This document shows, piece by piece, positions 25,619-49,176 of a stretch of DNA of 64,000 bases. Every line of letters begins with the position of its first letter. Position 1 is the first letter of the stretch. Source of the DNA: an uncultured bacterium. Lineage in GTDB: Bacteria > Patescibacteriota > Minisyncoccia > Phycocordibacterales > PALSA-1337. Below the pieces are notes generated by a model. It ran no database searches. It saw only the letters and a program-made list of their open reading frames with translations, and was not told the DNA's origin. A program made the translations under genes and the position numbers. Location: assembly GCA_963851055.1 (NCBI GenBank), contig CAWKMY010000006.1, forward strand, positions 14,663 through 78,662. Reading direction: 5' to 3'.

Positions 25619-25638
25619 GTTAGTTAGGAGTTAGGAGA

Positions 25639-26411: not shown

Positions 26412-26418
26412 ATTAATA

Positions 26419-27093: not shown

Positions 27094-27169
27094 CGCAAAA
27101 ATATATCATAATCGTAGGCAAAAAACCCGTAGCGCAATGCCACGGGCTGACTACTTTATGAAAAACAGG

Positions 27170-28090
27170 CTAATTGTGAACCGCCTTCGAAGAGCTGGCG
27201 CACAAGTCGTGAGCAAACTTCTCGACTGGCGTAAGGTCATATGCGGCAACGAGCCACAATAAACCGTGCGCCACACCAATAACAAGCGGATCTTGGCGCG
27301 GAATCTCCTTGACCTTCCAAGACTCATCCGGTGCTTCGGCGACGATAAACATGTCATCGAAGCGAGGACAACCTGGTTTTGGATCAAGCCAACCACGGAC
27401 TTGTTCACGAACATCTGACGGCATCACACCGCCATACTTGGCCGTAAGCTCAATCCGCTCAAGGTTTTTGGAGTCACACCAAGCGCCGAGGCTTTGGCGA
27501 AGATTCGCGTCCAAATAATGCGTGGCCATAATTTCCGGAATTTTTGGAGAAATACTGAATCCGGAAGTCGTGGTCCGTGCTAGGCCTCGCCTCTCGATCA
27601 ACTCGACAAGGGGAATGGCCGCTTGTCTTTCTTGAAAGAGATCATTCATCCAAGATGAACGGCCATCGTGAGTGAAGACCACCGTCATCGTATCACTGTC
27701 TAGACGGAAGATTGAAAAGGCGGGAAAGCCCTCTTGGGTCTTCCAAGACAGGAATGAAGGATCAATCGTCGGTAATTCGAACTCCGGAGTATGTTCAAAC
27801 CTGGCAATTTCCCGACCAACCACACCTAGCCGAAAATCAAGGGTGGTCTTCAGTTCAGTCTCGAGAAGCAAAGCGCGGTGCAAAGTATTTTGCATCAGGC
27901 GCCTGGAACTGTAGAGCCTTTCGAGCTTGACTGGGTCCTCCAATTCTTGGAGTGAGAGATGCCGAGCCGTCAATGCGGCGACTGGCACAAATTCACCGAT
28001 TTTTAGGAGCCGATTTCCTATTCTGGCTCCCATGAGCGGGGGTTGGGTAACATTAGTTTTCATAGGACTATGTGGTTGTTTGTTTTGCAT
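27170..28090 (-). CDS. Hypothetical protein (GC-richer than flanks)
   Basis: 306 aa ORF; no recognisable family. Confidence 0.4.
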   Translation of the reverse strand: MQNKQPHSPMKTNVTQPPLMGARIGNRLLKIGEFVPVAALTARHLSLQELEDPVKLERLYSSRRLMQNTLHRALLLETELKTTLDFRLGVVGREIARFEHTPEFELPTIDPSFLSWKTQEGFPAFSIFRLDSDTMTVVFTHDGRSSWMNDLFQERQAAIPLVELIERRGLARTTTSGFSISPKIPEIMATHYLDANLRQSLGAWCDSKNLERIELTAKYGGVMPSDVREQVRGWLDPKPGCPRFDDMFIVAEAPDESWKVKEIPRQDPLVIGVAHGLLWLVAAYDLTPVEKFAHDLCASSSKAVHN

Positions 28091-28263
28091 GGCTATCCTG
28101 TCGTCACTTTCAGACAGGACTCATGTATTTCCTCTATAAGTATAGCTCCGTATAAGATTGCAACAACGTAAAAGTTGATAAAAGGTGCATAACTTTTAGG
28201 CAAAAACGGGCTTACGATCAGGCCTTGTATACCATGCTATAATTCCCCCACAACTCCTCTTCC

Positions 28264-29082
28264 ATGGCATCCTCATATATCCCCGACACCATAGACTTCC
28301 TTGGGCAAAACCCGGTCTGGCTACTCGCCCTAGCGACGGCCATCATCCTGACTATCACCCTCATCAATCACATCCTTTGGCGCAAACTGAAGGAAGGTGA
28401 GAAATTGAAATATGAATTCATCACCATCATGGCCCACAAGTTCCGCACGCCACTCACCCATATCAAGTGGATATCGGACGAGTTGGTAGGAACGGTTCAA
28501 GACCAGCGGATAAAAGAGGGCCTGGAGCAGATACGGCGAGCCGGTACAAATCTAGTGGGACTGACCACCACTCTACTAGAACTGACCGATTCGAGAAAAG
28601 AAAAGACCTTATACGCTTTCGAACGGACAAACTTGTGCGACTTTGTCCGTACCATAGGCGAAGCAGCCAGAAGGACATTTCAAGAGAAGAACATTTCCTT
28701 CTCCGTAGTCTGTGACGATGGACCCGTTTTCGCCAAAATAGATAAGCCGCGCATGGAATTTGCCGTGCAAGTGCTCATGGATAACGCCTTTGCTTACACT
28801 CCCACCGGCAAAGTTGTGGCGATAACGGTCTCGAGGTCCGGACGCAAAGCGAACATATCCGTCAAAGATAACGGTATAGGTATCAGGCCGGAGGATATGA
28901 AGAAGATTTTCGGCAAATTCTTCCGGGCAGGCAATGCCCAGGCTATGGACACGGAAGGGTTCGGCGTCGGTTTATATCTAGCCAGATCAGTGGTAGAAAG
29001 GCACCATGGAAAGTTGGAAGCCTTCTCGGATGGAGAGGGCTTCGGCTCTACGTTCAAGATAGTTTTGAGAGCGATCAAATAG
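28264..29082 (+). CDS. Orphan sensor histidine kinase (1 TM, HisKA + HATPase_c)
   Basis: H-box MAHKFRTPLTHIKWISDEL; N, G1 (DNGIGI) and G2 (GFGVGL) boxes; no response regulator adjacent. Confidence 0.7.
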   Translation: MASSYIPDTIDFLGQNPVWLLALATAIILTITLINHILWRKLKEGEKLKYEFITIMAHKFRTPLTHIKWISDELVGTVQDQRIKEGLEQIRRAGTNLVGLTTTLLELTDSRKEKTLYAFERTNLCDFVRTIGEAARRTFQEKNISFSVVCDDGPVFAKIDKPRMEFAVQVLMDNAFAYTPTGKVVAITVSRSGRKANISVKDNGIGIRPEDMKKIFGKFFRAGNAQAMDTEGFGVGLYLARSVVERHHGKLEAFSDGEGFGSTFKIVLRAIK

Positions 29083-29189
29083 AACCCCGACGGGTACTAT
29101 TCCACAATTTCACCGGTGACTATGATCTTGGCGATTTTGTGAATGACAGCTTTGGTGGTCTTGATGAAAAAATCTACTATTGCCATTGA

Positions 29190-30041
29190 TTAGAGTTTGG
29201 TTTTCTTCTTGCCAACCTGACGGCGAGAGACGATGAAAATATTCGAGTATTTCTTTGGAGTCCTGGTCTTCTGACCCTTACCTGCTGGCTTACCCCAGCG
29301 AGTCTTGAGTCGGCGTAGACCGCGACCAGAGCGCTGTTCACCTCCGCCATATGGGTGATCTACTGGGTTCTGGGCGGAGCCACGAACTGTAGGACGTATA
29401 CCCATCCAACGGGTACGACCTGCTTTGCCGATATTAACCAGACGACTCTCTTCATTGGAAACGGCGCCGATAGTGGCCCAAGCATCTTCGTGGACTTTGC
29501 GTACTTCGCTGGAAGGCATCTTTATGTGCGTATAGCTCTGGTCATTAGCGACTACTTGACCGAATGAACCGGCGGAACGAACTAGTTTAGCTCCTGAACC
29601 TGGCTTGATCTCTATATTGAAAATGAATGTGCCGACAGGGATCTTCTTCAAAGGCAGGCGATTGCCCGTCTCTATAGGAGCGTGCTCGGATACCATAAAT
29701 GAGTTACCGACTTTCATCGTCTTTGGCAAAAGCACATAGCGCTTTGTGCCGTCCTTGTATGCCACGAGGCCGATGTAGCCAGTACGGAAAGGATCGTACT
29801 CTATGGTTTTGACCGTAGCTATGATGTCTTTCTTGTCATAATTGAAATCTATCTCACGGTAGAGCTTGGCATGACCTCCTCCCTTGTGGCGAACAGTGAT
29901 ACGACCAAAGGCATTGCGTCCCATGTCGCGCTTCCAACCATGAGTCAGAGGCTTGTAAGGCTCTGAAGCGGTCAGATATTGCTTGAACGGCAATACTGTC
30001 ATGTGGCGGCGAGATTTGGATGTTGGGCGGAATGATTTCAT
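29190..30041 (-). CDS. rplB: 50S ribosomal protein L2
   Basis: 283 aa, L2 signature incl. GGGEQR-like region. Confidence 0.9.
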   Translation of the reverse strand: MKSFRPTSKSRRHMTVLPFKQYLTASEPYKPLTHGWKRDMGRNAFGRITVRHKGGGHAKLYREIDFNYDKKDIIATVKTIEYDPFRTGYIGLVAYKDGTKRYVLLPKTMKVGNSFMVSEHAPIETGNRLPLKKIPVGTFIFNIEIKPGSGAKLVRSAGSFGQVVANDQSYTHIKMPSSEVRKVHEDAWATIGAVSNEESRLVNIGKAGRTRWMGIRPTVRGSAQNPVDHPYGGGEQRSGRGLRRLKTRWGKPAGKGQKTRTPKKYSNIFIVSRRQVGKKKTKL

Positions 30042-30084
30042 GGAAGTAAATATGCAAATATACGAATGATGCTAATGATACGAA

Positions 30085-30585
30085 TTATACAAAGTCGATT
30101 TTGTCGCCCGCTTTCAGCGTGACCAACGCTTTGCGGAAACCAGCCACTCTACCCTTCTTGCCGCGGAGGAAGACCTTCTTTGCCGGAGCATTCATGACTG
30201 CGACTTTGACCGGGGTGACTTTGTATAGAGCCTTCACGGCCTTGGCGATAGAATGCTTGTTGGCTGAACGTCCGACTTCGAAAGTATAGACGCCAGTTTG
30301 GCTCAAAAGGCCTGATTTCTCTGTGATGCGAGGGCGGATGATAGAATCTGTGACACTAGAGAAAACACCGGCCGGCAATGCTGCACCTGACTTTGCGGCG
30401 GCGGCATCTTTGGTGACTAAAGCACGAGCGACCTTCTCCGGCTTAACTGATGAAGACCTTCTCGCGCCTTTCTGAGGAGTGCCACCTTTCTTTCCGGCTA
30501 CAGATGAGGCCTTAGCCAGATTGGCTTCCGCCTGAACATGGCTCTGTGCGTGCTTCTTATCTGTTCTAAATCCGAATAAAGGCAT
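30085..30585 (-). CDS. rplW: 50S ribosomal protein L23 with about 70-aa A/K-rich N-terminal extension
   Basis: C-terminal L23 domain (YTFEVGRSANKHSIAKAVKALYKVTPVKVAVMN); N-terminal low-complexity region. Confidence 0.8.
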   Translation of the reverse strand: MPLFGFRTDKKHAQSHVQAEANLAKASSVAGKKGGTPQKGARRSSSVKPEKVARALVTKDAAAAKSGAALPAGVFSSVTDSIIRPRITEKSGLLSQTGVYTFEVGRSANKHSIAKAVKALYKVTPVKVAVMNAPAKKVFLRGKKGRVAGFRKALVTLKAGDKIDFV

Positions 30586-30596
30586 GGTAGTTAAGG

Positions 30597-31280
30597 TTAT
30601 TTGGTGGTTTTAGCTGCACTCGGAGTCTTAGCTGAAAAAGCTTTCAACGATTGTTCTGGATTGGCGATGATCAGATACTTGTGATTCATGACCGAGACCG
30701 GATTTATATTGCGGAATTCCTCAACTGAAACATTACCAAGGTTACGGAAGCTCTTTTCGATGATGGTTGACTTGGAATCTGTAGCAATGATAGCGGTATT
30801 GACCTTTTTTGTGGCGAGTTTTTCATAGCCCTTAATTGTGGCCAATGAGGAAAGAATCGTCTTTGCGTCTTTTGCCTTTGGGGCGGACATATTCAAAGTA
30901 TCGACAAAGAGAATGTCGCCATCTTTGAACTTGCGTGACAATACAATGAAAAGCGCCTTGGAACGAACCTTCTTGTTGATCTTACGGGAATAATTCTGAT
31001 CATTCCTAGGACCATGAGCTATACCACCACCTACCCAGATAGGAGAACGTGTGGAACCGTGACGAGCGCGGCCAGTACCCTTCTGCTGCCAAGGCTTCTT
31101 ACCACCACCACGGACTTCTCCACGGGTCTTGGTATGAGCGACGTTATCGCGAGAGTTATTATTCATGAGACGAACGACTTCGTGGACCAAGTCAGCATTC
31201 CATGGCAGGCCGAATACTCCTTCAGGGAGTTTCATCTTCCCTGTTTCTTTGCCTGATTGATTGTAGATTTTTGTTTCCAT
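30597..31280 (-). CDS. rplD: 50S ribosomal protein L4
   Basis: 227 aa, L4 signature. Confidence 0.9.
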   Translation of the reverse strand: METKIYNQSGKETGKMKLPEGVFGLPWNADLVHEVVRLMNNNSRDNVAHTKTRGEVRGGGKKPWQQKGTGRARHGSTRSPIWVGGGIAHGPRNDQNYSRKINKKVRSKALFIVLSRKFKDGDILFVDTLNMSAPKAKDAKTILSSLATIKGYEKLATKKVNTAIIATDSKSTIIEKSFRNLGNVSVEEFRNINPVSVMNHKYLIIANPEQSLKAFSAKTPSAAKTTK

Positions 31281-31304
31281 TTTATTGAATCAAATTTCGC
31301 CCTA

Positions 31305-31929
31305 TTAGCCGACGATCTCGACAAGCGTTCCGCGGCGTCCCGGGATAGCTCCGGCAACATACAGGATATTCTCTTCTGGGTCAACGTGAGCGATCTTCAG
31401 ATTCTTTACGGTGATGCGATCCGATCCCATGCGTCCAGCCATGCGCATACCTGTCGGTACGCGGTTACGCAAACCTCCGCCGATGGAACCTGGCTCGCGC
31501 TCGCTGTGCTTCTGGCCGTGAGAACGAGGACCTCCGTGGAAACCATGGCGCTTGACCACACCCTGAAAGCCTTTACCTTTTGAAACAGCCGAGACAACGA
31601 CAACGTCACCAGCTTTGAATTGTGAGAGCTCTACTTTGTCGCCGATCTTTAAGAGCAGGGGCTATCTGACCCGGAGTCTGGTCCGTTCGAAATTCAGATA
31701 AAGCGGCAAAATTACCAAGATCTTTGAAATGGCCTTTTTGAGCCTTATTTATCTTATTGGCATTGCGCTCACCTTCTCCTACCTGAACAGCTTCATAGCC
31801 GTCATTTTCCTTTGTCCTCAATTGGGTGACAATATTACCACGGGCGACAACCAGAGTAACTGGAATAGCCGCGCCTGAGGCATCGTAGATTTGGGACATG
31901 TTTAACTTTCTTCCAAGAATAAATTTCAT
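31305..31929 (-). CDS. rplC: 50S ribosomal protein L3, split into two ORFs by an apparent +1 frameshift near 31647-31652
   Basis: N-terminal ORF 31606-31929 (MKFILGRKLNMSQIYD...) and C-terminal ORF 31305-31559 (VKRHGFHGGPRSHGQKHSER...). The conserved GDKVELSQFKAGDVVVVSAVSKGKGFQGVVKRHGF is readable in the second frame upstream of the annotated Met. The frames meet at cttaaagatcgg. Confidence 0.8.
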
Positions 31930-31951
31930 GGCGGTAAGCGGTCGTATTGGG

Positions 31952-32350
31952 CTACATCATCTTTACGTCTATATTGACGCCAGATGGCAGACTCATATTG
32001 GTAAGGGCTTCTATAACTTTCGGATTTGGATTGATGATATCGATCAAACGCTTGTGCACTCTCATCTCGAACTGCTCACGGCTATTCTTGTCGATGAAAG
32101 AAGAACGATTGACTGTGTACTTCTTTATCTCCGTCGGCAACGGCACCGGACCGAGGATCTCTACGTCGTACCTAGACGCAGTATCCATGATCTGACGAAG
32201 GCTAGCGTCGAGAATCTTGTGCTCATAAGCACGGACGCGAATGCGGAGGTGTGGCAGGGCGCCCTCAACCTTGGCCTTCTTTGCGCGAGCAACCTTGGCG
32301 GCCGGCTTTGCGTGAGTCTCTTTTTTAACTGTTTCTTTGTGAGGAGCCAT
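31952..32350 (-). CDS. rpsJ: 30S ribosomal protein S10 with about 30-aa K/A-rich N-terminal extension
   Basis: S10 core LRIRVRAYEHKILDAS...; N-terminal MAPHKETVKKETHAKPAAKVARAKKAK. Confidence 0.85.
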   Translation of the reverse strand: MAPHKETVKKETHAKPAAKVARAKKAKVEGALPHLRIRVRAYEHKILDASLRQIMDTASRYDVEILGPVPLPTEIKKYTVNRSSFIDKNSREQFEMRVHKRLIDIINPNPKVIEALTNMSLPSGVNIDVKMM

Positions 32351-32383
32351 TTTAATATTGCGTGCTTTATTCGTCGATTCGCA

Positions 32384-33571
32384 TTAAGCAATGATCTTGG
32401 TAACAACTCCGGCACCGACGGTCTTGCCACCCTCGCGGACGGCGAAACGCATCTTCTCTTCGAGAGCTACTGGGGCTACGAGCTTGACCTTGAAGGTCAC
32501 GGTGTCACCTGGCATGACCATCTCCACCTTCTCGGCGAGGGTCACTTCTCCAGTAACGTCAGTAGTACGGATATAGAATTGAGGCTTGTAACCTGTGAAG
32601 AATGGAGTGTGGCGACCGCCTTCTTCCTTCTTCAAAACGTAAACCTCTGACTCGAATTCTGTGTGAGGCTTGACGGAACCCGGCTTGGCCAAAACCTGAC
32701 CGCGGGAAACGTCATCCTTGGCTGTACCACGGAGCAATACTCCGGCATTGTCTCCAGCCATACCTTCCTTGAGAGACTTGTTGAACATTTCGATACCTGT
32801 CACAACTGTCTTCACCGTGTCGCGGAAACCGACGATCTCGACTTCCTCACCAACTTTGATGATGCCGCGATCGATCTTGCCTGTGACGACTGTGCCACGA
32901 CCTTCGATCGAGAAGATGTCTTCTATAGGCATGAGGAAAGGCTTGGCTGTATCGCGTACAGGCTCAGGAATATAGGTATCCAAGGCTGTCATGAGAGCAT
33001 CGATAGACTTTGACCATTCTGCGTCTCCGGCGAGAGCGAGAGAAGCTGAACCGCGGATAACCGGGACATTCTTGCCATCGAACTGGTTCTTGGTCAGAAG
33101 TTCGCGAACTTCCTCTTCAACGAGGTCGATAAGGTCTTTCTCAGGAACGAGGTCACACTTGTTGAGGAAAACAACGATCTTCGGCACACCGACTTGGCGG
33201 GCGAGAAGAACGTGCTCACGAGTCTGAGGCATGACGCCGTCAGTGGCGGATACGACGAGGATAGCTCCGTCCATCTGGGCGGCGCCTGTGATCATATTCT
33301 TGATGAAGTCAGCGTGGCCTGGACAGTCGATGTGAGCGTAGTGACGAGTAGGTGTCTCGTACTCTACGTGCGAGAGAGAGATGGTGACGGTCTTTGTTGC
33401 ATCGCGGACTGTACCACCCTTGGTGATATCTGCGTAAGCCTTTATATTGGCCAATCCTTTCTTGGACTGAACCGCGAGGATAGCGGCGGTCAAAGTAGAC
33501 TTGCCGTGGTCGATGTGACCGATGGTGCCGACGTTAACGTGCGGCTTTGTGCGATTGAATTCTGCTGCCAT
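32384..33571 (-). CDS. tuf: Elongation factor Tu
   Basis: [29 protein letters not shown]-motifs; 395 aa. Confidence 0.95.
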
Positions 33572-33744
33572 ATTATTTGTTTAGTGCTTTGGCTTGTGGC
33601 GCGTGGTCCGCAGGTAAGCGGGCGAAGCGTCAAGAGCCAAAGATAATGTTGTTAATAGTTATTAAAACGCCTCCAATAGGAAAACAGAGGCGGATAGCGA
33701 AGAGCATAGCATATCTGGAAATACTGTCAAATTTCCGCCCGGTA

Positions 33745-33780
33745 AATAGAAAAACCGTCCGGGATTTCTCCGAACGGTTT
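33745..33780 (-). terminator. Rho-independent terminator downstream of the surface-protein gene
   Basis: aaaccgt/acggttt stem with inner pairing, followed on minus strand by tttttcta. Confidence 0.5.
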
Positions 33781-33804
33781 CTCCTCAAGACTGACTTGAA
33801 ATAT

Positions 33805-35325
33805 CTAGTGAGAATTTAGGTACTGCTGTACTGCGTTCCAGACGGAAGCCGAGAGCGAAGTCTGAAAGTTATACGAGGTCGTCCCTACGCATGCCGAACC
33901 ATTCCATGTCTGACCGGCTACAGGACAAGTGTACTGAGCAGAGTTGAACAGAGACGAATCCCATATCCAGTTGGCTCCGGAAATGCGAGCCCAGCTTCTA
34001 TAGAGGTTATTTGACGGTATAACTAAGGTGGATCCTCCGGATGATTGTTCCGTACCATCGCTCGAGGCTATGATGCTCCCTCCCGAAGATATGGTGTAAT
34101 CAACTCCGGCTGGATTTCCCCACCATCCCCATTCTATGGACGGATTCGGAATGTTTGTAACCGTTATAGCTATAGTATTGCTACCTTGATTGACGGCAGA
34201 AGTGATGTCGTAAGTCTTAGGTGATGTGAAGTTAGTCGCATTCACATCTCCTGAAGCAACAGGGATACCATTCACAGACACGGAATATCCGTTATCAGCC
34301 GCTATAGACAGAGACACTGGGCTGGTTGTCGAAGTCAAATTGAATGTCTTGGTGAAGGTTATGACTTGCGGAGGAACGTTGGCGTAAGAGACTGGAGCCG
34401 ATGGAGGAGTCTGCGTCTGCGTTGAGCACGTGTAGCTAGGCGGACAATTCGAGGTGACACCGGTGCAAGTGTATCCTGAAGGACAAGTGGTCGTCTGACC
34501 AGGAGGAGTACAGACATAACCTGCAGGACAAGCAACAGGGGTAGCAGTCACATTCACCGTCGTTGTCGTCTGTGCGGACAAGCCTGCGCTGTCGGTCACC
34601 GAGAATGTAATCGTGTAATTCCCCGCTGAAGCGTATGAATGGGTGAACGTAGAATTCTGTACAACAAGGCTAGCGCTGTTCGCACATACATAACCGACAG
34701 GGCAGGCTGAACCATTATCTCCCCAATTGACCGAGTAACTCAACGAACCATTCTGCGGATCACTTGCATTGACCGCCCAAGTACCTGTCTGACCGACCGT
34801 GAGTGTCGTCGGGAACGTCCCGCCGGAGATGACCGGGGGTTGGGAAGTCGGCTGCTGTGTCGTGGTACAAACGTAACCATTGCAAGACGCCTGTGAGATA
34901 GAACTATTGTATAGAGCGGAATCCCATATCCAGCTAGCGCCAGGAATAGAAGTCCATGAATAGAGAATCTTGCTTTGCGGAATAACTATAGTCGATCCGC
35001 CGGAAGATTGTTCTGTGCCATCGCTCGAGGCCAGAGTCGCCCAGTTCTGAGTTACCTTGTAGTCCAGTCCGGCCGGATTGCTGGCCCAGATAGTGCCGGT
35101 AGTCGCTGGATTGACGATATTGTCCACCGTTATAGCCAAAGTGTTGCTTCCCTGATGGATAGCCGAAGTTATATCCACATTCTGCGGTGAATAGAAGTTC
35201 GTCTCTGAATTGTTCGTCGAGACATTCGTGCCATTCACGGAAACGGAGAATCTGTTATCAGCCGCGATGGCGAGAGTCACCGGACTGCCGGTCTGGTTCA
35301 CATTGAAGGTCTTGGTGAAGGTCAC
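33805..35325 (-). CDS. Extracellular Cys-rich repeat protein (PKD-like domain, two about 170-aa internal repeats); probably the C-terminal part of one giant gene with 35333..37678
   Basis: CP(A/V/S)GY(V/T)CT repeats; PKD-like WGDNGS...AGNYTITFSVTDSAG; duplicated ITFTKTFN...SSDGTEQSSGGST...WIWDS modules. GTG start with no signal peptide. The frame stays open upstream (…NDQVVTFTKTFN), matching the internal repeat. Confidence 0.55.
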   Translation of the reverse strand: MTFTKTFNVNQTGSPVTLAIAADNRFSVSVNGTNVSTNNSETNFYSPQNVDITSAIHQGSNTLAITVDNIVNPATTGTIWASNPAGLDYKVTQNWATLASSDGTEQSSGGSTIVIPQSKILYSWTSIPGASWIWDSALYNSSISQASCNGYVCTTTQQPTSQPPVISGGTFPTTLTVGQTGTWAVNASDPQNGSLSYSVNWGDNGSACPVGYVCANSASLVVQNSTFTHSYASAGNYTITFSVTDSAGLSAQTTTTVNVTATPVACPAGYVCTPPGQTTTCPSGYTCTGVTSNCPPSYTCSTQTQTPPSAPVSYANVPPQVITFTKTFNLTSTTSPVSLSIAADNGYSVSVNGIPVASGDVNATNFTSPKTYDITSAVNQGSNTIAITVTNIPNPSIEWGWWGNPAGVDYTISSGGSIIASSDGTEQSSGGSTLVIPSNNLYRSWARISGANWIWDSSLFNSAQYTCPVAGQTWNGSACVGTTSYNFQTSLSASVWNAVQQYLNSH

Positions 35326-35332
35326 GACTTGA

Positions 35333-37678
35333 TCATTCGGACCAACATTGAGAGCTGTTGAGACCGGGGTCGGAGTACGTGGTAGGCGTTTCGCTGTAAC
35401 ATGTATAACCAGTCGGGCAATTGCTTATACTGACTGGAGTGCAGACATAACCAGCAGGACAGCCTGATGAACCACCACCTGGAACTGAACATATGTAACC
35501 AGCAGGACAGACAGCTGAAGCGCCTCCATTAAACATCACCACAGCTTTCAAATTATCTAGACCAGAAGTGATGGAGTACGCATGAAGGTTAGTCGCACTG
35601 GTACCATAATCTATCGCCGTCATTTGAGCTATGTTGGCGCCATTTACGGTAGCCGCCGAACTACTAAGGGTACCGCTTAGATTTATCTGACGAGAAGAAC
35701 CTGGCGGAAGATACCAATAATTTTCATTATCTCCTGGCACTAGGGATGGAACCGCTCCGCTAGCGACAATGTTCGGTATGATATTTCCATTTCCTGAAGC
35801 AAAGTGTAGAGAGGAGTAGGTATTCTGCGCGACAGAAGTGCTTACGAATATCGGATTATTCCCCGCTATCAGAGTGAAAGAGAAAGTGACAGGCTGGACA
35901 CAAGAGACCATTGCATTATCACAAGTCTGAGAGCCAAGCGTCGACGAAGTATTACTGATTTGGACGCCGCTAGAGGCGGAAGAGAAGGTGATGGTGTTAC
36001 CGACTATAAGACTTTGCCCAGCAGATACATTATTATAGTTAGAATCGAGTGCCACAAGTGCGCTCGTAGGCAACTCAACTAATGCATTCGAGCTATTGAG
36101 ATTATGATTCGTATCTTGAGCCACGCTACCTAGGATCGTGATCGGCACAGAGACATCCGCGGGCAGGGGGATGTTGAAATTAGTGAACGATACGCTCTTG
36201 TTATCGCTAGCAATCGAAGTTTCAGCATACGTTCGACCGCCTGCTTTTATAAATAGATTAGTGAAGAAACTGGATATATTCGTATTTCCTCCGTTTACGA
36301 TCACGCCGATAGTAAGCGCTTGAAGCGTAGAAGGACTGCCTTGTGACTTCACATCAAACACCGCGAGTGGCACATTTTGAGTCACTGCTGAAGTCGAGAT
36401 CTGCACTGTGCTCGCAAGTGGCGAAGACGGATCGAGAGAAGCGGTTATTCCTGCGCCACCAATCGGTTGTGGATTGATTGGCTGAGGCTGGGCACAACTC
36501 TTATTCAAGGCCGCACGAGTCGCCGGACCAAAGAAGCCTGTAGCAGGTATGCCTACGCTAGCCTGATATTTTGCCACAGCGGCGGCTGTTTGATAACTAT
36601 ATACGCCCTTTTGCTGGCGACCGGAAGAGACGGCCGGAATGTCATAACCGTTGCCCATGAGCCATGTCTGTAGGGCAACGACGTCAGCACCTGTAGATCC
36701 AATAGTTAAGTTGTTACTGAATACATAGCAAGACGTCGAACCGGCTGATTGAACTTGGAAGCTGACCTGATTGCTGGCACCGGTATTTTCATTTTTGACT
36801 TGAATACTATGATAGCCATTTGTCAGAGACGGCGCGACAAATGTCATAGATGTACCGTCAGTCGATATACCAGTAGTCACATTGTACAAAACACTGTTAT
36901 CTATAAATATGACGGAATTCGTAAGCCGCTGACCCGATATCGTGAGTGTCTGTCCCGGGCTGACGATACTCGGCGTGACGGAAGTTATATAAGGAGAAAC
37001 TTCGCCGACGATGGTGACCGCATTGCTCTGATTCGTTGGAACACTGGCAAATACCGATGATCCATCAGTGCTTGGAGGCATTGAATCACCGTAAACACTC
37101 TGAAGGCTTGCCGTGTAGCTTCCAGCGAACATTTGCTTTGGATTGACACTAGCGGAAACACCAAAACTAGTAGTCTGTCCCGGTGCTACAACGAACACAT
37201 TCCTGCCATATGAATCGACACTGCTGCTTGCAAGGGAAGAATTAGACGGAGTAATGACTACTTGACCAGAGCCTTGGCTATGAGCCGATGAAATGAACTG
37301 TACGGCGGCTCCATTCTGATATATTTCAATACCTTGAGTATTACCATGAACTGTAAATGATCCCGTAAGGGTAAGAGCAGCTTCGCCATGTTGGGAATCA
37401 TAAGTAAGCGCCAAAGAAGGTGTTCCGTTTATCGTAACCGTGGCATCTGTAGTCGGAGCTACAACACCCCCGCCGCCACCTGAAGAACCTCCGCCTGAAT
37501 TATTAGGCGTACAAACATATCCTACTGGACAATTAGTGACCGGAGTTATTGGCGTACATGTATATCCAGCCGGACAAGCTACCGTCTGCGCCTCTGCCGC
37601 AGGAGCTGGCATAAAAGCGACTAAGGCGAGAGAGAATGCTACAACCGGAACGATAACCGAAAACATGGCTCTTTTCAT
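35333..37678 (-). CDS. Secreted giant surface protein with signal peptide, CPxGYxCT Cys-rich repeats and a PG_binding_1-like peptidoglycan-binding domain
   Basis: Signal peptide MKRAMFSVIVPVVAFSLALVAFMPAPAAEA; LTIGSTGADVVALQTWLMGNGYD...GFFGPATRAALNK PGBD; many CPAGYVCT units. Confidence 0.6.
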   Translation of the reverse strand: MKRAMFSVIVPVVAFSLALVAFMPAPAAEAQTVACPAGYTCTPITPVTNCPVGYVCTPNNSGGGSSGGGGGVVAPTTDATVTINGTPSLALTYDSQHGEAALTLTGSFTVHGNTQGIEIYQNGAAVQFISSAHSQGSGQVVITPSNSSLASSSVDSYGRNVFVVAPGQTTSFGVSASVNPKQMFAGSYTASLQSVYGDSMPPSTDGSSVFASVPTNQSNAVTIVGEVSPYITSVTPSIVSPGQTLTISGQRLTNSVIFIDNSVLYNVTTGISTDGTSMTFVAPSLTNGYHSIQVKNENTGASNQVSFQVQSAGSTSCYVFSNNLTIGSTGADVVALQTWLMGNGYDIPAVSSGRQQKGVYSYQTAAAVAKYQASVGIPATGFFGPATRAALNKSCAQPQPINPQPIGGAGITASLDPSSPLASTVQISTSAVTQNVPLAVFDVKSQGSPSTLQALTIGVIVNGGNTNISSFFTNLFIKAGGRTYAETSIASDNKSVSFTNFNIPLPADVSVPITILGSVAQDTNHNLNSSNALVELPTSALVALDSNYNNVSAGQSLIVGNTITFSSASSGVQISNTSSTLGSQTCDNAMVSCVQPVTFSFTLIAGNNPIFVSTSVAQNTYSSLHFASGNGNIIPNIVASGAVPSLVPGDNENYWYLPPGSSRQINLSGTLSSSAATVNGANIAQMTAIDYGTSATNLHAYSITSGLDNLKAVVMFNGGASAVCPAGYICSVPGGGSSGCPAGYVCTPVSISNCPTGYTCYSETPTTYSDPGLNSSQCWSE

Positions 37679-37924
37679 GGTTTTATGTGATTACGAACTA
37701 ATTAATAGATAATGGACGACATCCAAATACTTGCTCAAGTATACCCCCCCCCGACGAATTTGCACAATATAAGTTGTGAACAGTCGAGATGCAAGGAGAA
37801 AGCGACGCTCGCCGTCTGGCAAGCATCGCTTGGGTAGTGGAAACATTATAGCGCGTCACAAATTGCATGCAAAGAGGTTATCCACATGTTAAAGTGAAAC
37901 CGTGCACGCAGACATTTACCTAAA

Positions 37925-38779
37925 ATGAGGAAAGTTTTTAAAGTTCTAATATACATATTTGCCGTAATCGGCTTTGTACTGGTCATCGTCTATGCGGCTC
38001 TAGAGCTTGGCCTAACCAAAACAGCCGGTATCATCGATGCTCAACATGATTATTTCAAAAACCAATTGAGCAACGCCACAAATACAGATTCTTCCGGTAT
38101 CAATTCATTTAATAGCGATGCCTGGGCTCAAGGTGAAGAGTGGACCGTGCTCAAAGAAGCTATCGCAACTGATACAAAAAGCATAAATATGGCAGCTCAA
38201 CTCTCCGGCGTGCCAGCTAGAATGATCACTTCCCTACTCATCGTCGAACAGCTACGACTTTTCCATTCGGATCGTGAATTATTCAAAGAAGTTTTCGCCC
38301 CACTCAAGATATTGGCTGTTCAAAGCCAATTTTCTTGGGGTGTCATGGGTGTGAAGCAAGATACTGCGCGGCAAATAGAAAACAACCTAAAGGATCCGAG
38401 CTCGCCATGGTATTTGGGACCTGAATATAGCCATTTATTGGACTTTGCTACTTCAACGGCTACTTCGACTCTGCCGAATCAGGATACCCAGCGTTTCAAT
38501 CGTCTGACGGATGAGCATAACCGATATTATTCTTACTTATATGCTGGATTATTCGTCAAAGAGATCGAGGCTCAATGGCAGAAAGCCGGCTTTCCTATAG
38601 CTGATAGGCCGGACATCATCGCCACCCTCTATGACATCGGTTTTGGTAATTCCCACCCCAATGCCAATCCTCTTTCTGGTGGCGCGGAGATAGATGTTGG
38701 CACGACTACTTATAGTTTTGGCACTCTGGCAAATAGCTTTTACCAGTCAAATGAGATGACTGACATATTCCTGAAATAA
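37925..38779 (+). CDS. Membrane-anchored putative lytic transglycosylase-like protein
   Basis: N-terminal TM; MAAQLSGVPARMITSLLIVEQLRLF ... SQFSWGVMGVKQDTARQI reminiscent of SLT-domain E...S...GxMQ..TA pattern (weak). Confidence 0.4.
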   Translation: MRKVFKVLIYIFAVIGFVLVIVYAALELGLTKTAGIIDAQHDYFKNQLSNATNTDSSGINSFNSDAWAQGEEWTVLKEAIATDTKSINMAAQLSGVPARMITSLLIVEQLRLFHSDRELFKEVFAPLKILAVQSQFSWGVMGVKQDTARQIENNLKDPSSPWYLGPEYSHLLDFATSTATSTLPNQDTQRFNRLTDEHNRYYSYLYAGLFVKEIEAQWQKAGFPIADRPDIIATLYDIGFGNSHPNANPLSGGAEIDVGTTTYSFGTLANSFYQSNEMTDIFLK

Positions 38780-38854
38780 GGTGGATTACGGAGTTTGACT
38801 TCCCAACGGCAAGGTGTAGATTTATCTTGGCGGTAAAACAAAATATCCATAGTT

Positions 38855-39364
38855 ATGAGCGTAACATCATTGAAAAGTGAGGATGCCACCCAGACGGGTG
38901 TCATGAGAACAAACATCATCCGCGTCGAAGCCGAGGAAATTCTCCGGTTGCGGCATCAAGGATTGAGAACGAACCGGCCCATAGATGTGGCGAGATTCGA
39001 AGGCGACCACGCCAAATCATCGTGGCACTTGGCGGCCGTCCCCGTTGATGAAAACGGTTGGAAAATACTCGGCAGCGACGTCATAGGCTGCGCCAGTTTC
39101 ATTGCGGGCAAACTGGAAGATCATAGCACCTGGCAGCTCCAAGGCTTGGTAGTCACCACCAGTTTCAGAAAAATGGGGTTGGGACGGAATTTGCTGGCCT
39201 ATGCCGAAAGCCATATCCCAACGGATACCGGTATCCACTTGTTCTTGTGCGACGCCCCATTGGAGACGGTCAGATTCTTCGAGAAGTGTGGCTGGATGGT
39301 CATTTCCGACCAAATAGACGTGCAGGACTTCGGCGCCTGTCGGAAAATGGTCAGGCAGTTGTGA
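38855..39364 (+). CDS. GNAT family N-acetyltransferase
   Basis: Motif A QLQGLVVTTSFRKMGLGRNLLAYAE. Confidence 0.65.
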   Translation: MSVTSLKSEDATQTGVMRTNIIRVEAEEILRLRHQGLRTNRPIDVARFEGDHAKSSWHLAAVPVDENGWKILGSDVIGCASFIAGKLEDHSTWQLQGLVVTTSFRKMGLGRNLLAYAESHIPTDTGIHLFLCDAPLETVRFFEKCGWMVISDQIDVQDFGACRKMVRQL

Positions 39365-39476
39365 TACCATGTGAATCTATCGAGCCGCGGGAATGATCCT
39401 GCGGCTTTTTTAATTAAAACATTTAGAGCTAATAAAAAGCCGGACGTGAGTCCAGCTATTACGGCAATCCGGGGCA

Positions 39477-39761
39477 TCAATCTTCTTCGACCTTGGTTTT
39501 GGGCGCAAATCTTTGCGGCACCCACGCCTCATCCCTCGACGATGTGGGCTCTCCTCGAGGAAATAAGGCCCTAAGGACTCGTTTTTGGTCCCGACGATCA
39601 AGGGTTTCTTCGATCACTCTTTTCGCCTTCATTGCATCCGTCTGGACTACCGGGCCCTTTTTGAGAGCCTCAGCGTCAGACTTCTTGTTTATGACATTCA
39701 AGGTAACCTCTGGTGTTAATTTGTTCATGACAAGCGTAATACTCAATCTAGAAAAAATCAA
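39477..39761 (-). CDS. Hypothetical small protein
   Basis: 94 aa ORF, basic; no family assignment. Confidence 0.25.
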   Translation of the reverse strand: MIFSRLSITLVMNKLTPEVTLNVINKKSDAEALKKGPVVQTDAMKAKRVIEETLDRRDQKRVLRALFPRGEPTSSRDEAWVPQRFAPKTKVEED

Positions 39762-39838
39762 GATGGAACTATTTCATTGCCTCACTTTCAATTGACACAA
39801 TTCCAACATAGAAGTAGTCTGACCACGGATGGTAAACA

Positions 39839-40585
39839 ATGAAACTAAAGAAACTTATGAAAAAACCAAATGAAATCGCTGAGCAGAACTTTGCCAAATT
39901 ACGCAGTAACATCTATCCCGGCCGCGGCATCATCGTCGGCGTTGATGAGACGGGACAAAACATGGTCCAAGTCTATTTCCTCATGGGCAGGAGCGAAAAT
40001 AGCCGGAACCGCATTCTGAGTTCCGAAGGGGGACGCCTATTCACCGAAGCAGCTGACCCAGCCAAGGTGAAGGACCCGAGCCTGATCATCTATAATGCCA
40101 TGCGCGACGATGGAAAAAACTTCGTCGTGAGCAATGGCCATCAGACCAATGCCGTCATGACGAGTCTCCAGTGTGGAGGATCTCTTGCCCTGGGATTGGA
40201 AGCATACGAATATGAGCCCGATGCTCCAAACTACACACCGCGCATCACAGCCGTTTGCTGGCCGCGTGGTTCCATGATTGCTGAGGTGTCCATATTGAAG
40301 AAGTCGTCTGACACCCCTCCCTGCAATCGTTTCTATTACGGGTATGCAACGATTTCTCCTGGGTTCGGCTACTGCGTCACCACATACGATGGAGACGGCG
40401 ACCCATTACCATCGTTCACCGGAGGGCCATTCACAATGCCGCTCAATGGCGATGCCAAAATGGTAGCGGAAACTTATTGGGCTGCCCTAAACACGGATAA
40501 CCGGATCTCATTAGCAGTCAAATGGATTCCGAGGGGAAACGTGGAGTCAACGGTCCACGTCATCAACCGGTTCAGCAAGGCCTAA
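39839..40585 (+). CDS. PurO-like (archaeal-type IMP cyclohydrolase family) protein, tentative
   Basis: IYPGRGIIVG...VYFLMGRSENSRNR resembles N-terminus of PurO family; assignment from memory only. Confidence 0.35.
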   Translation: MKLKKLMKKPNEIAEQNFAKLRSNIYPGRGIIVGVDETGQNMVQVYFLMGRSENSRNRILSSEGGRLFTEAADPAKVKDPSLIIYNAMRDDGKNFVVSNGHQTNAVMTSLQCGGSLALGLEAYEYEPDAPNYTPRITAVCWPRGSMIAEVSILKKSSDTPPCNRFYYGYATISPGFGYCVTTYDGDGDPLPSFTGGPFTMPLNGDAKMVAETYWAALNTDNRISLAVKWIPRGNVESTVHVINRFSKA

Positions 40586-40601
40586 ACCTCATCAATCACT
40601 C

Positions 40602-40637
40602 AAAACGCGCCAGCTTTCGCCGGCGCGCTTTTTTTAT
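40602..40637. terminator. Bidirectional intrinsic terminator between convergent PurO-like gene and fusA
   Basis: cgcgcc/ggcgcg GC stem flanked by aaaa on the left and ttttttt on the right. Confidence 0.55.
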
Positions 40638-40656
40638 TCCCCAAAAATTATTTCTT

Positions 40657-42802
40657 TTACTTCCTCTTCTCCTTTATACCCTCTGCAACGTTAGCCGGAA
40701 CGACTTCATAGTGATCGAATTCCATCTGAGCAGAACCTTGGCCGGAAGTCATGGAACGAAGAGCCGTGGTATAGCCGAACATCTCTGACAATGGAACCTT
40801 GGCGATGATAGAGATGACTTGGCCCTTTGGATTGGAGCCCTCGATGGTACCGCGCTTGGAAGCAATGGAACCATTGACGTCACCCATGTACTTCTCCGGA
40901 CAGACGACTTCGAGCTTCATGATAGGTTCGAGAATGACAGGCTTGGCGCGCTTGGCTGCATCTTGGAAAGCCTGGGAAGCGGCTATCTTGTAAGCGATCT
41001 CTGATGAGTCAACGTCGTGGTAAGAACCGAAAGTGAGCTCGCAGGAAATGTTAACAAGTTTGAAACCGGCGACGATACCGCGATCGAGTGCCTCACGAAC
41101 ACCTTTCTCGACGGCTGGAATAAATTCATTCGGAATGACGCCGCCTTTGATGGAGTTGATGAATTCAAAATCATCATAGCGGTGAACTGTCTTGGGTATC
41201 TTCTCCCCTTCCGGCCATGGTTCCATAGGTTTCGAGAGTCAGACGGACGTGACCGTATTGACCCTTGCCTCCGGTCTGCTTGATATATTTGTGTTCAGCT
41301 TCAGCGGTGCCGAGGATGGTCTCACGATATGCTACCTGTGGCTCACCGACATTGGCTTCAACGCCAAATTCGCGCTTCATACGATCCACCATGATCTCGA
41401 GGTGAAGTTCTCCCATGCCTGAAATAATAGTCTCGCCTGTTTCCTGGTTGCTGGAGATACGGAATGTTGGGTCTTCATTGCCGAGCTTGCGCAGAGCCAA
41501 GCCCATTTTCTCCTGATCAGCCTTGGTCTTCGGCTCGATGCGTAGAGACACAACCGGTTCCATGAATTTGATAACTTCGAGGACTATCGGGTGTTCCTCA
41601 TCGCAGAAAGTATTGGAAGTGAGGGCGTCTTTCAGTCCTACGGCGGCAGCGATCTCTCCGGCAAAGACTTTCTTGACCTCTTCACGCTTGTCGGCTTGGA
41701 GGCGGACGATACGACCGAGGCGTTCCTTCTTGCCAGTGGTGGAATTGTAAATATATGAACCAGCTTCTATGGTTCCGGAATAGACACGGAAGAATGTCAG
41801 AGCTCCGACGAATGGATCATTCTGAAGTTTGAATGCCAAGGCGGAAAAAGGTTCTTTGTCATCTGCGTGGCGGAGTATCTCTTCGCCTGTATTCGGGTCA
41901 ATACCCTTTATTGGAGGCATATCTAGAGGCGAAGGCAGGTAGTCGACGACGGCATCGAGAACGAGTTGAACGCCTATATTCTTCAAGGCGGAACCAGTGA
42001 AGACTGGGAACATCTTGTTGTCTATGACGGCACGGCGGACGATTTTCTTGAGCTCATCAACCGAAGGAGTTTTACCATCGAGATAAGAGGCCATGGCCAC
42101 ATCATCATGCTCGACGATCTTTTCTATGAGCTCGGCATGATATTTCTTTGCATCGGCGGCGAGTTCATCAGGAATCTCTTTTTCAACTATTTTATTTCCC
42201 ATTTCTCCCTCGAAATAGTATGCCTTCATCTTTAGAAGATCGACTACCCCAATGTGATTGCCCTCTGTGCCTATAGGGAGCTGGAAACGAACGGCCTTCG
42301 GACTCAACCTTTCGAGAATTGATTTGAATGAAAATTCGAAAGAAGCTCCCATGCGGTCCATTTTATTGATGAAACAAAGACGTGGCACATTGCCTTCGTC
42401 GGCATAGCGCCAGTTGGTCTCTGACTGTGGTTCAACGCCGGCAACGCCGTCGAAAACCACAACTGCTCCGTCGAGTACGCGTAGAGACCTTTTCACTTCT
42501 ACAGTGAAGTCGATGTGTCCAGGAGTGTCGATGATGTTGAAGCGAACCATCTTCGACTTATCGGTCGGAGGCATGTATGACGGATTCCAGAAACAAGTGA
42601 TAGCGGCAGCCGTGATGGTGATACCGCGCTCGCGCTCCTGTTCCATCCAGTCTGTGACAGTGTCACCTTCGTGCACTTCACCGATCTTGTGCGTCATTCC
42701 TGTATAGAAAAGAATACGCTCTGATGTAGTCGTCTTGCCCGCATCGATGTGGGCAATGACTCCGAAGTTACGTACTTGAGAGAGTGGGTAGTCGCGGTTC
42801 AT
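40657..42802 (-). CDS. fusA: Elongation factor G, split into two ORFs by an apparent +1 frameshift at about 41224-41236
   Basis: N-terminal ORF 41174-42802 (AHIDAGKTTTSERILFYTG...GQYGHVRLTLET) and C-terminal ORF 40657-41226 (MEPWPEGEK...). The frames switch inside aacctatggaaccatgg, a near-tandem aaccatgg duplicate with one extra t. Confidence 0.85.
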
Positions 42803-42945: not shown

Positions 42946-43197
42946 TTATTTCTTGTAATGATTGGTGATACTGAACACTTCAATCACTTCCTTCTTAGCA
43001 AAAAAGAATAATGCGCGGTATTTACGATCAATCCTGAATGAATAGATGCCGTGCCACTTCGGCTCCAAAAGCTCCACATTGAGAGAGGGGTGTCTAGTAT
43101 TTGATTGGAGTAGCGCCGACGCTTTCTTATATTTGGAAATTAGCTTGCGCGCGACAAGATACTCTACCAAATCCTGACGAAGAGGCTTGACCTTCAT
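42946..43197 (-). CDS. RelE/ParE-family type II toxin
   Basis: 83 aa; WHGIYSFRIDRKYRALFFFAKKEVIEVFSITNHY resembles RelE/ParE core (yelRi..dyRiiy...i.il.i.hR). Confidence 0.6.
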   Translation of the reverse strand: MKVKPLRQDLVEYLVARKLISKYKKASALLQSNTRHPSLNVELLEPKWHGIYSFRIDRKYRALFFFAKKEVIEVFSITNHYKK

Positions 43198-43208
43198 ACG
43201 CTAAATGA

Positions 43209-43418
43209 TTATTTGGCATATGAAGACTTACGCAGGCCGGATTCAAGGTCGGAAATAAATTCTCTTGAATAAAGTCCTGATGCGCGGAAATCTTCGACCA
43301 CGGTCTTGATCGGATCTTTTATAAGCAATTCAAAAAGGCGAGCCGCTACGGCATGGTAGGCTTTAGCTTCTTTCTTTAGCTTGGTATATTCGGTTTTCTG
43401 GATGGTTATTCTGCTCAT
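43209..43418 (-). CDS. Putative cognate antitoxin (small, upstream of RelE-like gene)
   Basis: 69 aa ORF 11 nt upstream of the toxin on the same strand; family not recognised. Confidence 0.4.
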   Translation of the reverse strand: MSRITIQKTEYTKLKKEAKAYHAVAARLFELLIKDPIKTVVEDFRASGLYSREFISDLESGLRKSSYAK

Positions 43419-45402: not shown

Positions 45403-46045
45403 CGAATATATAAAAGTAAATATTCACATCGCCACCCCAGTAAACAATTGAAACACCCACGGAATTATCGGCGCCACTACTTGCCAGAGAAAAAAAATGA
45501 CAATTAGAGCAAAAATCGGTGAATTCCTTTCCATCGTCATTCTTACTCGGCCATATTGATTGGGTAAAACGAAAAGAGCAATTTGGAACCATCAAGCGGC
45601 GGCAGATGGAATGAAATTAAAGACAGCTAAGATAATATTGATAATAACTATATAAGAAATGATCGTAATAAAAGGCGCCAACGAAGTGGCAGAAGCAGCA
45701 TCAGTTATTCCGCCAGCGACAAAGCGCAAATAGTCCCAAAAACCAAAGCAATCAGAAGATTCGAAGCTGGCCCAGCAGCCGCGATGAGGAATTCACCTTG
45801 GCGTTTATTCTTGAGATTATATGGATTGTAAGGAACAGGCTTGGCCCAACCAAACGTGGAGCCTGAGTAAGCGAGGTGATAAGAGGCACTATTATAGAAC
45901 CGAGCGGATCTATATGTTTGAGCGGATTCAAAGTCAGCCTGCCAGCCAATCGCGCCGTAGGATCACCCAGCGGTCAGCCATATAGCCATGGGAAAGCTCG
46001 TGAAGGATGACGGATATTATGAGAATGACTATAGATAATATAGTA
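45400..46045 (-). pseudogene. Site-2 protease / peptidase M50 family gene disrupted by multiple frameshifts
   Basis: Minus-strand reading gives MLTILSIVILIISVILHELSHGYMADRWV (HExxH) then stop. After shifts come ...[16 protein letters not shown]... and [35 protein letters not shown]. Confidence 0.5.
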
Positions 46046-46099
46046 AGCATGATTGTTGACCTCCAAACCAATCAATGATAGCATACGATTCTCACTCTT

Positions 46100-46466: not shown

Positions 46467-46934
46467 TTATGGTGCCGTCCCTCCAGAGATATCATACATT
46501 TTCTCATAGGTTCTCGGATCTATGATAAATGCGGAAACGACCTGATTCTCTGAACCAGGCGTTTTTGTTATCTCAAGAACTACTCCATAATTTCTACTAA
46601 TTTTCCGTGTTAGGATAAAACTATTATCTCGTTTTAGAAAATTGTTGACTATCTTTTCGGGCATATTTAGAACCACTGGAATTATACTTATAACTTCATC
46701 GGCCTTATTTCCTCTACTGTCGATGATATGCTTGAGAGCTCTTCTGGAAATATATACCCCACGGGATTTAGACCCGATAACTTGTGCCGTGCAGTATGAG
46801 ATGAATGCCACACTAAATATTCGGAGTGGATCGGGAATGGCCTCACCAACACTGATGTTCTTAAGCTCCTCAATTATTTCATCCGGTATACTCATGTATT
46901 TATGTTCATTGAGAAATACCGATGTCAATTCCAT
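46467..46934 (-). CDS. Hypothetical protein, paralogue A of a two-member family with RR(A/T)LKH motif
   Basis: Aligns with ORF 48733..49176: YISRRALKHIIDSRG...IIPVVLNMPEKIV...VVLEI vs FFTRRTLKHLAEKG...IIPNILEYPDVIF...IIVIEF. Confidence 0.4.
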   Translation of the reverse strand: MELTSVFLNEHKYMSIPDEIIEELKNISVGEAIPDPLRIFSVAFISYCTAQVIGSKSRGVYISRRALKHIIDSRGNKADEVISIIPVVLNMPEKIVNNFLKRDNSFILTRKISRNYGVVLEITKTPGSENQVVSAFIIDPRTYEKMYDISGGTAP

Positions 46935-48732: not shown

Positions 48733-49176
48733 TCACGAAAGTGAGCCGCCCGTCCTCCAGAGAATCTCAAAGTTCTTGAGGTATTTTTCGTCCGTGACAA
48801 AAGATGTGACCAGAATCACGCCTCTCTCAAGAAATTCAATTACGATTATATGCGGCTCTCTTTTCTTGCCCTGATTGAAAAATTTTGCAGAAAGTAACCG
48901 AGTCTTCTTTCCCCGGAAAATAACATCTGGATATTCGAGGATATTTGGAATAATTCCGAGCAATCTTTTACCCTCTACTCCCTTTTCGGCAAGATGTTTT
49001 AGTGTACGTCGAGTAAAAAATGCCTGTAACTTTCCTCTAGAAAAAATCTGCATAATTACAGGGTGTACAGAAAAACCAGTCTGGATTAATTCATCAGGCC
49101 TATCAATCAAAATCCCTTTCGGAATTTTTTGGAATTCGTAAAAAATTGACCGTAAAGGTGTGGTGTGCTTATTCAT
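48733..49176 (-). CDS. Hypothetical protein, paralogue B (RRTLKH motif)
   Basis: See paralogue A; overlaps stop of comEC N-terminal gene by 4 nt. Confidence 0.4.
   Translation of the reverse strand: MNKHTTPLRSIFYEFQKIPKGILIDRPDELIQTGFSVHPVIMQIFSRGKLQAFFTRRTLKHLAEKGVEGKRLLGIIPNILEYPDVIFRGKKTRLLSAKFFNQGKKREPHIIVIEFLERGVILVTSFVTDEKYLKNFEILWRTGGSLS

Follow-up and report, generated by a model that had tools for sequence, protein, structure and literature searches.

The split of the EF-G gene fusA in the 64-kb stretch of DNA analysed here (the window) is very probably a consensus error of a draft assembly and not a biological feature, as judged from comparison with the sequences of relatives. The window would belong to the draft genome of an uncultured member of the Patescibacteria (Paceibacteria/Taylorbacteria-like), probably a MAG, the consensus sequence of which would contain scattered single-base errors. 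One of these errors would be a surplus base at about 41233/41234, placed between codons 523 (Leu) and 524 (Lys) of an otherwise normal fusA gene of the single-copy type, making the gene appear as two ORFs of 542 and 189 aa, and the living organism would have a continuous fusA of 714 codons read by conventional translation.

Organization of the fusA gene

The fusA gene is located on the minus strand (42802 -> 40657) and has 2146 nt (3 x 715 + 1, that is, 3n + 1), with 523 codons in frame 0 followed by 191 in the +1 frame. As given, it does not form a single uninterrupted reading frame, the frame changing at about 41233, and the two ORFs are in different frames, confirming the split by a +1 frame change described in the earlier note. 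The features referred to below are:

41174 to 42802, minus strand: ORF A, the N-terminal ORF of fusA (542 aa), which starts MNRDYPLSQVRNFGVIAHIDAGKTT
40657 to 41226, minus strand: ORF B, the C-terminal ORF of fusA (189 aa), in the +1 frame, which reads MEPWPEGEKIPKTVHRYDDFEFINSIKGG...
41234 to 42802, minus strand: fusA codons 1-523 in frame 0, encoding the GTPase domain, domains II and III and ~36 residues at the start of domain IV, with ...GQYGHVRLTL as the last residues
40657 to 41232, minus strand: fusA codons 524-714 plus the stop codon in the +1 frame, from KPMEPWPEGEKIPKTVHRYDDFEFINSIKGG... to ...EGIKEKRK*, encoding the remainder of domain IV and domain V
41174 to 41233, minus strand: out-of-frame tail of ORF A, ETYGTMAGRGEDTQDSSPL followed by TGA TGA
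41233 to 41234, minus strand: likeliest site of the surplus base, ACT CT[C/G] AAA, the single gap in pairwise DNA alignments
41215 to 41231, minus strand: near-repeat aacc-t-atgg aaccatgg, that is, (A)AA CCT ATG GAA CCA TGG, native coding sequence for K-P-M-E-P-W in the +1 frame

In tblastn searches, residues 1-524 of the protein were matched in frame -1 at 99.8% and residues 524-714 in frame -2 at 100%, and the 19 residues that follow ...GQYGHVRLTLE in ORF A (TYGTMAGRGEDTQDSSPL) have no counterpart in the orthologues. Removal of one base restores an EF-G of 714 aa that is colinear with its orthologues. When this conceptually repaired protein was used as query against a collection of 5.8 billion proteins, the best 120 homologues listed showed 99-100% query coverage, 84-95% identity and lengths of 705-723 aa, nearly all of them being exactly 714 aa long, and the named sources among those listed were Patescibacteria, Paceibacterota or Candidatus Taylorbacteria MAGs. 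The closest EF-G examined, P0125, which belongs to the best cluster, is 97.3% identical across 714 residues, and its gene is 87% identical in DNA. The Pfam domains GTP_EFTU, domain 2, EFG_III, EFG_IV and EFG_C were all present in the corrected protein, each matched over the full length of its profile (E-values between 1e-59 and 1e-15). On these grounds, the fusA gene of the window is best read as an ordinary Paceibacteria EF-G gene.

The break falls between residues 523 and 524, about 36 residues into domain IV (EFG_IV spans 488-620 and EFG_III 415-486), and not at the junction of domains III and IV, where it had been placed before. This position also bears on the idea of a naturally split EF-G, in which polypeptides of 542 and 189 aa would be two separate translation products, the shorter one initiated at the ATG at 41226, that combine into a functional factor. 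The start codon of ORF B does lie inside the tail of ORF A, and re-initiation would be possible, but this codon corresponds to the internal Met conserved in K-P-M-E-P-W and not to a newly acquired start, it is not preceded by a purine-rich ribosome-binding site (CTCTCGAAACCT), the break is not between domains and no relative has a split gene. Hence a two-part factor is hardly conceivable here.

Position of the surplus base

Frame 0 agrees with the orthologues up to ...RLTL (last codon CTC, 41236-41234), and the +1 frame agrees with them from K-P-M-E-P-W on (first codon AAA, 41232-41230), close EF-G homologues reading GQYGHVRL(T/N/S)(L/V)(K/R)P(M/L)(E/K/Q)(P/A)WPEGEKIPKTVHRYDDFEF over this region. 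Homology thus permits an interval of approximately 41229-41240 for the surplus base. Within it, whole-gene DNA alignments with locus L001 (83% identity) and with loci L082-L084 (87%, the gene of P0125) each opened a single gap along their 2146 columns, located at 41233/41234. Deletion of either G41233 or C41234 gives ACT CTN AAA CCT ATG GAA CCA TGG, encoding T-L-K-P-M-E-P-W as in the orthologues.

The extra base had been proposed earlier to be the "t" of aacctatgg, within a near-tandem duplication of 8 nt. The repeated string is indeed present on the minus strand, although its coordinates were off by about 9 nt, the true ones being 41231 -> 41215. The "t" itself, at 41227, occupies the third position of CCT, a codon for a Pro residue that does not vary among the close relatives shown; in the Taylorbacteria locus L054 the sequence AAA CCT ATG CAA CCA TGG CCA is found in frame, so the "t" is native. 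Its deletion was discarded as a repair, because it yields L-E-T-M-E-P-W, with Thr where close relatives keep Pro (L-K/R-P-M); the product LETMEPWPE, taken earlier as a normal EF-G domain III/IV junction, is not of the orthologous type at this residue. The origin of the near-repeat by duplication or slippage was likewise rejected, since it consists of the conserved codons of K-P-M-E-P-W and such repeats are common in the window, where an 8-mer beside a copy of itself with one inserted base was counted in 31 cases versus about 10 in shuffled sequences.

Conservation of fusA in relatives

The presence of a similar break was analysed by tblastn in 81 loci, comprising 80 GTDB species representatives and L001, and in all 81 of them fusA residues 500-560 were spanned by a single match. 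The nearest relative is represented by three independent assemblies, L082-L084 (from JGI, ENA and Logan), all of which encode an intact P0125 of 714 aa. Altogether, the frameshift was found in none of 84 related loci and in none of 126 related proteins, a count restricted to full-length proteins, which have 713-723 aa and are continuous, with three further cluster members set aside as fragments. No match to the DNA pattern spanning the junction, with or without the extra base, was obtained in JGI metagenome contigs. Searches for identical copies of five proteins of the window (the products of both fusA ORFs, of an ORF of 781 aa, of tuf and of rpsL) gave no match either, and the species found in the GTDB scan were all different ones. 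Fourteen loci with fusA spans longer than 2142 nt were considered as putative carriers of inteins or introns, but in these fusA was joined to the G domain of the neighbouring tuf.

Selection on both parts of the gene was estimated by the method of Nei-Gojobori. Compared to L001, the frame-0 part (codons 1-523) gave a Ka/Ks of 0.032 and the part in the +1 frame (codons 524-714) one of 0.025; compared to L054, the value was 0.046 both upstream and downstream of the break. Therefore, the downstream part of fusA is under purifying selection as strong as that acting on the upstream part. Translated in the +1 frame, the 19-codon stretch that runs from the break to the stop of frame 0 gives KPMEPWPEGEKIPKTVHRY, a sequence shared without change by several orthologues, which indicates that the +1 frame is selected from Lys-524 on and that a biological frame change would have to sit at 41233 +/- a few bases and not at the frame-0 stop. 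No signs of pseudogene decay were detected in fusA, which has a single indel, no stops in the correct frames and no relaxed Ka/Ks.

These data constrain the possibility of a real and very recent insertion, by which fusA would be a nascent pseudogene tolerated through a second EF-G paralogue, or a minority or hitch-hiking allele caught by the consensus. Some bacteria carry two EF-G paralogues, the sequence as given is frameshifted, the context of the lesion in fusA is not a homopolymer, and the presence of several broken genes on the contig could in principle correspond to a decaying lineage. Nevertheless, with a downstream Ka/Ks of 0.025 and no second lesion in 2146 nt the inactivation could only be an extremely recent event, and no second fusA was found within the 64-kb window, in which only the G domain of tuf gave matches. 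A recent insertion is thus considered unlikely, also in view of the state of other genes of the contig described below.

Other disrupted genes in the window

The 81 related loci were translated for all ORFs of 80 aa or longer, and the products served as tblastn queries against the window. Consistent frame changes backed by dozens of queries appeared at three places, corresponding to fusA (118 query pairs), a position at ~31.7 kb and the segment 45.5-46.0 kb, and an internal stop codon was found in a further gene:

31308 to 31929, minus strand: rplC (ribosomal protein L3), with a +1 frame change; N-terminal part 31609-31929, C-terminal part 31308-31661
45427 to 46050, minus strand: peptidase M50 gene (site-2 protease-like, HELSHG), with five frame switches, f1>f0>f2>f1>f2>f1
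5127 to 6623, minus strand: RNase J-like gene (metallo-beta-lactamase + beta-CASP + RMMBL), interrupted within its MBL domain by an in-frame TAA (6003-6005; ...SGDQVQ*PKILFTGDLG...)

In rplC, which lies about 10 kb from fusA, residues ~1-90 of the homologues match 31935-31680 (frame -2) and residues ~95-210 match 31649-31308 (frame -3), both pieces being spanned by more than 40 homologue queries. The shift is located within ~31648-31661, an interval that contains a C4 run, and the orthologue in L082 is intact (209 aa).

The five frame switches of the M50 gene fall within ~420 nt. Three of the five junctions could be pinned to gaps of 2-4 nt without a homopolymer (gac-CG-ctg, cca-TCTG-ccg and cca-AT-caa), a context like that of the fusA lesion, and the remaining two contain short runs only, up to T4. 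The stitched protein gave a Pfam Peptidase_M50 match and was 67.5% identical to the L054 orthologue in an alignment of 194 columns (query residues 17-209), a value within the range of the neighbouring intact genes (43-92%); this identity, together with the absence of stop codons from the correct frames, speaks against a pseudogene of long standing.

In sum, at least eight point lesions disrupt genes in 64 kb, two of them in the universally essential translation genes fusA and rplC. No motif common to the eight lesion sites, such as that expected for a methylation-site artefact, was evident by inspection. Most genes of the window are unbroken, including several ORFs of 500-780 aa. No internal breaks were found in the genes for S10, L4, L23, L2, S19, L22, S3, L16, L29, S17, L14 and L24, nor in those for L5, S14, S8, S5, L15, SecY, Adk, Map, EF-Tu, S12 and S7, most of the unbroken genes giving full-length profile or homologue matches, with L24 covering only part of its C-terminal profile. 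The integrity of the other ribosomal protein genes checked, tuf, secY and several long ORFs is an observation that speaks against error.

A number of additional candidates were rejected as frameshifts. The S5/L15, S8/S14 and rpsG/rpsL ORF overlaps, the pair of ORFs for surface proteins (PKD-type and TIG/PG-binding, 33.8-37.7 kb) and the pilin-like/T2SS-F pair turned out to be normal neighbouring genes with full-length Pfam matches, and weak multi-frame tblastn candidates at ~21.3, 24.6, 32.3, 33.3, 44.0 and 55.5 kb corresponded to antisense shadow ORFs or adjacent genes.

Because similar lesions are present in other conserved genes of the contig, the break in fusA is read as an assembly error. 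The earlier note had included a wrong assembly among its options, and this option is favoured by the seven or more further disruptive single-base lesions in rplC, the M50 gene and the RNase J-like gene. Moreover, rplC is essential and normally single-copy, and the joint loss of fusA and rplC is implausible in a viable cell, so these lesions are taken as consensus errors; the five indels of M50 occur without excess substitutions, unlike in natural decay, which also favours errors over a recent real insertion. The absence of a homopolymer, used earlier as an argument against an error, carries no weight in this assembly, given that three of the five M50 junctions are gaps of 2-4 nt of the same kind. 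Altogether, we infer that the lesions originated in sequencing or assembly and not in the living cell.

The distribution of the lesions does not fit a uniform error rate, as five of the eight are in a single gene (M50); this unevenness obliges one to assume either that the sequence is locally poor or that M50 is a genuine pseudogene. The M50 cluster may correspond to a region of locally low coverage or strain heterogeneity. It is very improbable that the lesions are real and that a lineage or subpopulation with frameshifted fusA and rplC still makes enough full-length protein, as this would demand non-programmed suppression of frameshifts at an unusually high rate or an unrecognised type of recoding at sites without motifs.

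Search for recoding signals at the fusA site

The remaining option of the earlier note was that the organism recodes, by a +1 shift of the ribosome (or a -2 shift on CUCUC) at ACU CUC G AAA, or by slippage of the RNA polymerase, to give full-length EF-G. In support of this, EF-G is essential, the downstream frame is perfectly conserved and the sequence ACUCUCG contains two overlapping CUC codons on which tRNA-Leu could re-pair after a -2 slip. Such a slip, however, would insert a Ser (RLTLSKPM) that is found at this position in no homologue, and in the +1 direction, from CUC to UCG, re-pairing of the tRNA is not possible.

The site reads GTC CGT CTG ACT CTC GAA ACC. At the shift, frame 0 contains neither a stop nor a slow codon, the codon after CUC being GAA and the first frame-0 stop lying 19 codons downstream (41174-41176). 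Neither CTTTGA nor a CTTT slippery run was found on the minus strand within 41174-41242. A Shine-Dalgarno-like element about 3 nt upstream is also absent, the upstream sequence being GTCCGTCTGACT, and the sole purine-rich run, GGAAGGGGAG, which encodes PEGEK, is located ~20 nt downstream of the junction. No long A/T homopolymer is present in the shift interval, where the longest run is A3, which rules out transcriptional slippage. Regarding a stimulatory RNA structure, none was apparent in the 93 nt downstream, with a predicted folding energy of -20.7 kcal/mol versus -18.9 +/- 3 in shuffled sequences (z = -0.61).

Thus, neither a frameshift motif nor a structure or homopolymer accompanies the break, which is present in none of the 84 related loci, including that of the orthologue with 97% identity. 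In addition, separate events would be needed for rplC and, five times, for M50. We consider recoding very improbable at this site. With the consensus error as the preferred reading, the earlier note is partly confirmed in its observation and partly supported in its interpretation.

Discussion

If the split of fusA is a consensus error, its biological weight is little, and its main relevance is for data quality: gene calls, pseudogene counts and inferences of "recoding" or "gene loss" made from this genome need caution until it is polished with reads. Should the lesions be true, they would constitute an interesting case of tolerance to frameshifts without motifs in essential genes.

Among known systems, rescue of frameshifted genes by transcriptional slippage on long poly-A/T tracts occurs in the reduced genomes of endosymbionts, and the present case resembles them in being an apparently frameshifted essential gene in a small-genome bacterium. 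However, that rescue needs long A/T homopolymers, and the fusA shift interval has at most three A's.

The similarity to the +1 frameshift of prfB (RF2) consists of the direction of the shift and the Leu codon right before it (CUC in fusA, CUU in prfB). A site of the prfB type is composed of an AGGGGG-like Shine-Dalgarno element, a CTTT slippery run and a weak in-frame TGA-C (PMC12421855). The hallmarks of the prfB site (PMC12421855), namely the UGA at the site, the CTTT, the AGGGGG-like element 3 nt upstream and conservation among orthologues, are missing in fusA.

Compared to the canonical EF-G of Paceibacteria, the product of the window gene is alike, after removal of one base, in its 714 aa, its complete set of domains and its 85-97% identity to more than 100 Paceibacteria EF-Gs. 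The gene is also located downstream of rpsL-rpsG as in its canonical counterparts, although in the window rpsG and fusA are set apart by a RelE/HigB-like toxin-antitoxin (TA) pair. Likewise, tuf closely follows fusA in the 14 relatives examined, whereas about 7 kb of accessory genes separate both genes in the window.

Finally, frameshifts and premature stops that pseudogenise genes are described as an artefact of error-prone (long-read) assemblies (PMC12007338). The lesions of the window differ from the textbook pattern of homopolymer errors in that those pinned lie outside homopolymers and five are in one gene. They do resemble the errors of draft, long-read or low-coverage assemblies in being isolated indels plus a premature stop in otherwise conserved genes, several per contig, and in that a correction of one base restores full colinearity with the orthologues (PMC12007338).

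Other broken genes in the window

In addition to fusA, three protein-coding genes with interrupted reading frames were found in the window:

31308-31929, minus strand: rplC (ribosomal protein L3), frameshifted +1
45427-46050, minus strand: peptidase M50 (site-2 protease-like) gene, five frame switches over about 420 nt
5127-6623, minus strand: RNase J-like gene (metallo-beta-lactamase, beta-CASP and RMMBL), with an in-frame TAA

The break in rplC, of the same +1 type as that in fusA, maps to about 31648-31661, where a C4 run also occurs. The closest relative (L082) has an unbroken orthologue of 209 aa. In the M50 gene, the three junctions that could be resolved to 2-4 nt contain no homopolymer, and the stitched protein still shows 67.5% identity to its orthologue from a Taylorbacteria locus (L054). 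The clustering of lesions in this gene may reflect a locally poor consensus. In the RNase J-like gene, the TAA (6003-6005) falls inside the MBL domain.

Pilus cluster and small ORFs with toxin-like or nuclease-like domains

The following features were also detected:

56260-63247, minus strand: type IV pilus / T2SS-like cluster
46467-46934 and 48733-49176, both minus strand: two small ORFs with PBECR3 and PBECR2 domains
42946-43418, minus strand: RelE/HigB-like toxin ORF (83 aa) and a 69-aa partner ORF, between rpsG and fusA

The pilus cluster appears intact and encodes a T2SSE ATPase, a T2SSF platform protein and two pilin-like proteins with N-methyl motifs, one of which (611 aa) bears CarboxypepD_reg domains. 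PBECR3 and PBECR2, the latter matched below the cut-off of Pfam, are phage-Barnase-EndoU-ColicinE5/D-RelE-like nuclease domains, and the ORFs carrying them have M50, SOD and ComEC genes nearby. The RelE/HigB-like pair lies inside the str operon, the Pfam matches of its toxin ORF being weak and all under the curated cut-offs.

Accessory genes in the ribosomal protein operons

About 7 kb (33600-40650) separate fusA from tuf, compared to a tuf start about 150-640 nt past fusA in the 14 GTDB relatives examined. This stretch encodes an IMP cyclohydrolase-like protein and a GNAT acetyltransferase, together with a TIG/peptidoglycan-binding protein of 781 aa and a PKD-domain protein of 506 aa. Accessory genes were also located in the neighbouring cluster:

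15400-32400, minus strand: S10-spc ribosomal protein gene cluster, broken up three times by accessory genes
18645-20387, 22410-24136 and 26067-29079: the insertions
10575-11456, plus strand: rve-family integrase (IS element transposase), directly downstream of the cluster's map end

Between S14 and L5, the cluster holds the gene for a PemK/MazF toxin and an unknown ORF of 269 aa. The genes found between L29 and L16 encode a SocA/Panacea antitoxin-domain protein and a nucleotidyltransferase, and are accompanied by an ORF of 142 aa. Between S19 and L2 are genes for a cupin, a methyltransferase and a histidine kinase, along with another unknown ORF. In the nearest relative (L082/L083), the Panacea module sits instead between fusA and tuf, and the gap between L2 and S19 holds ORFs other than those of the window. 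Given these differences in position and content, the accessory genes of the S10-spc cluster look like mobile insertions in a normally contiguous operon.
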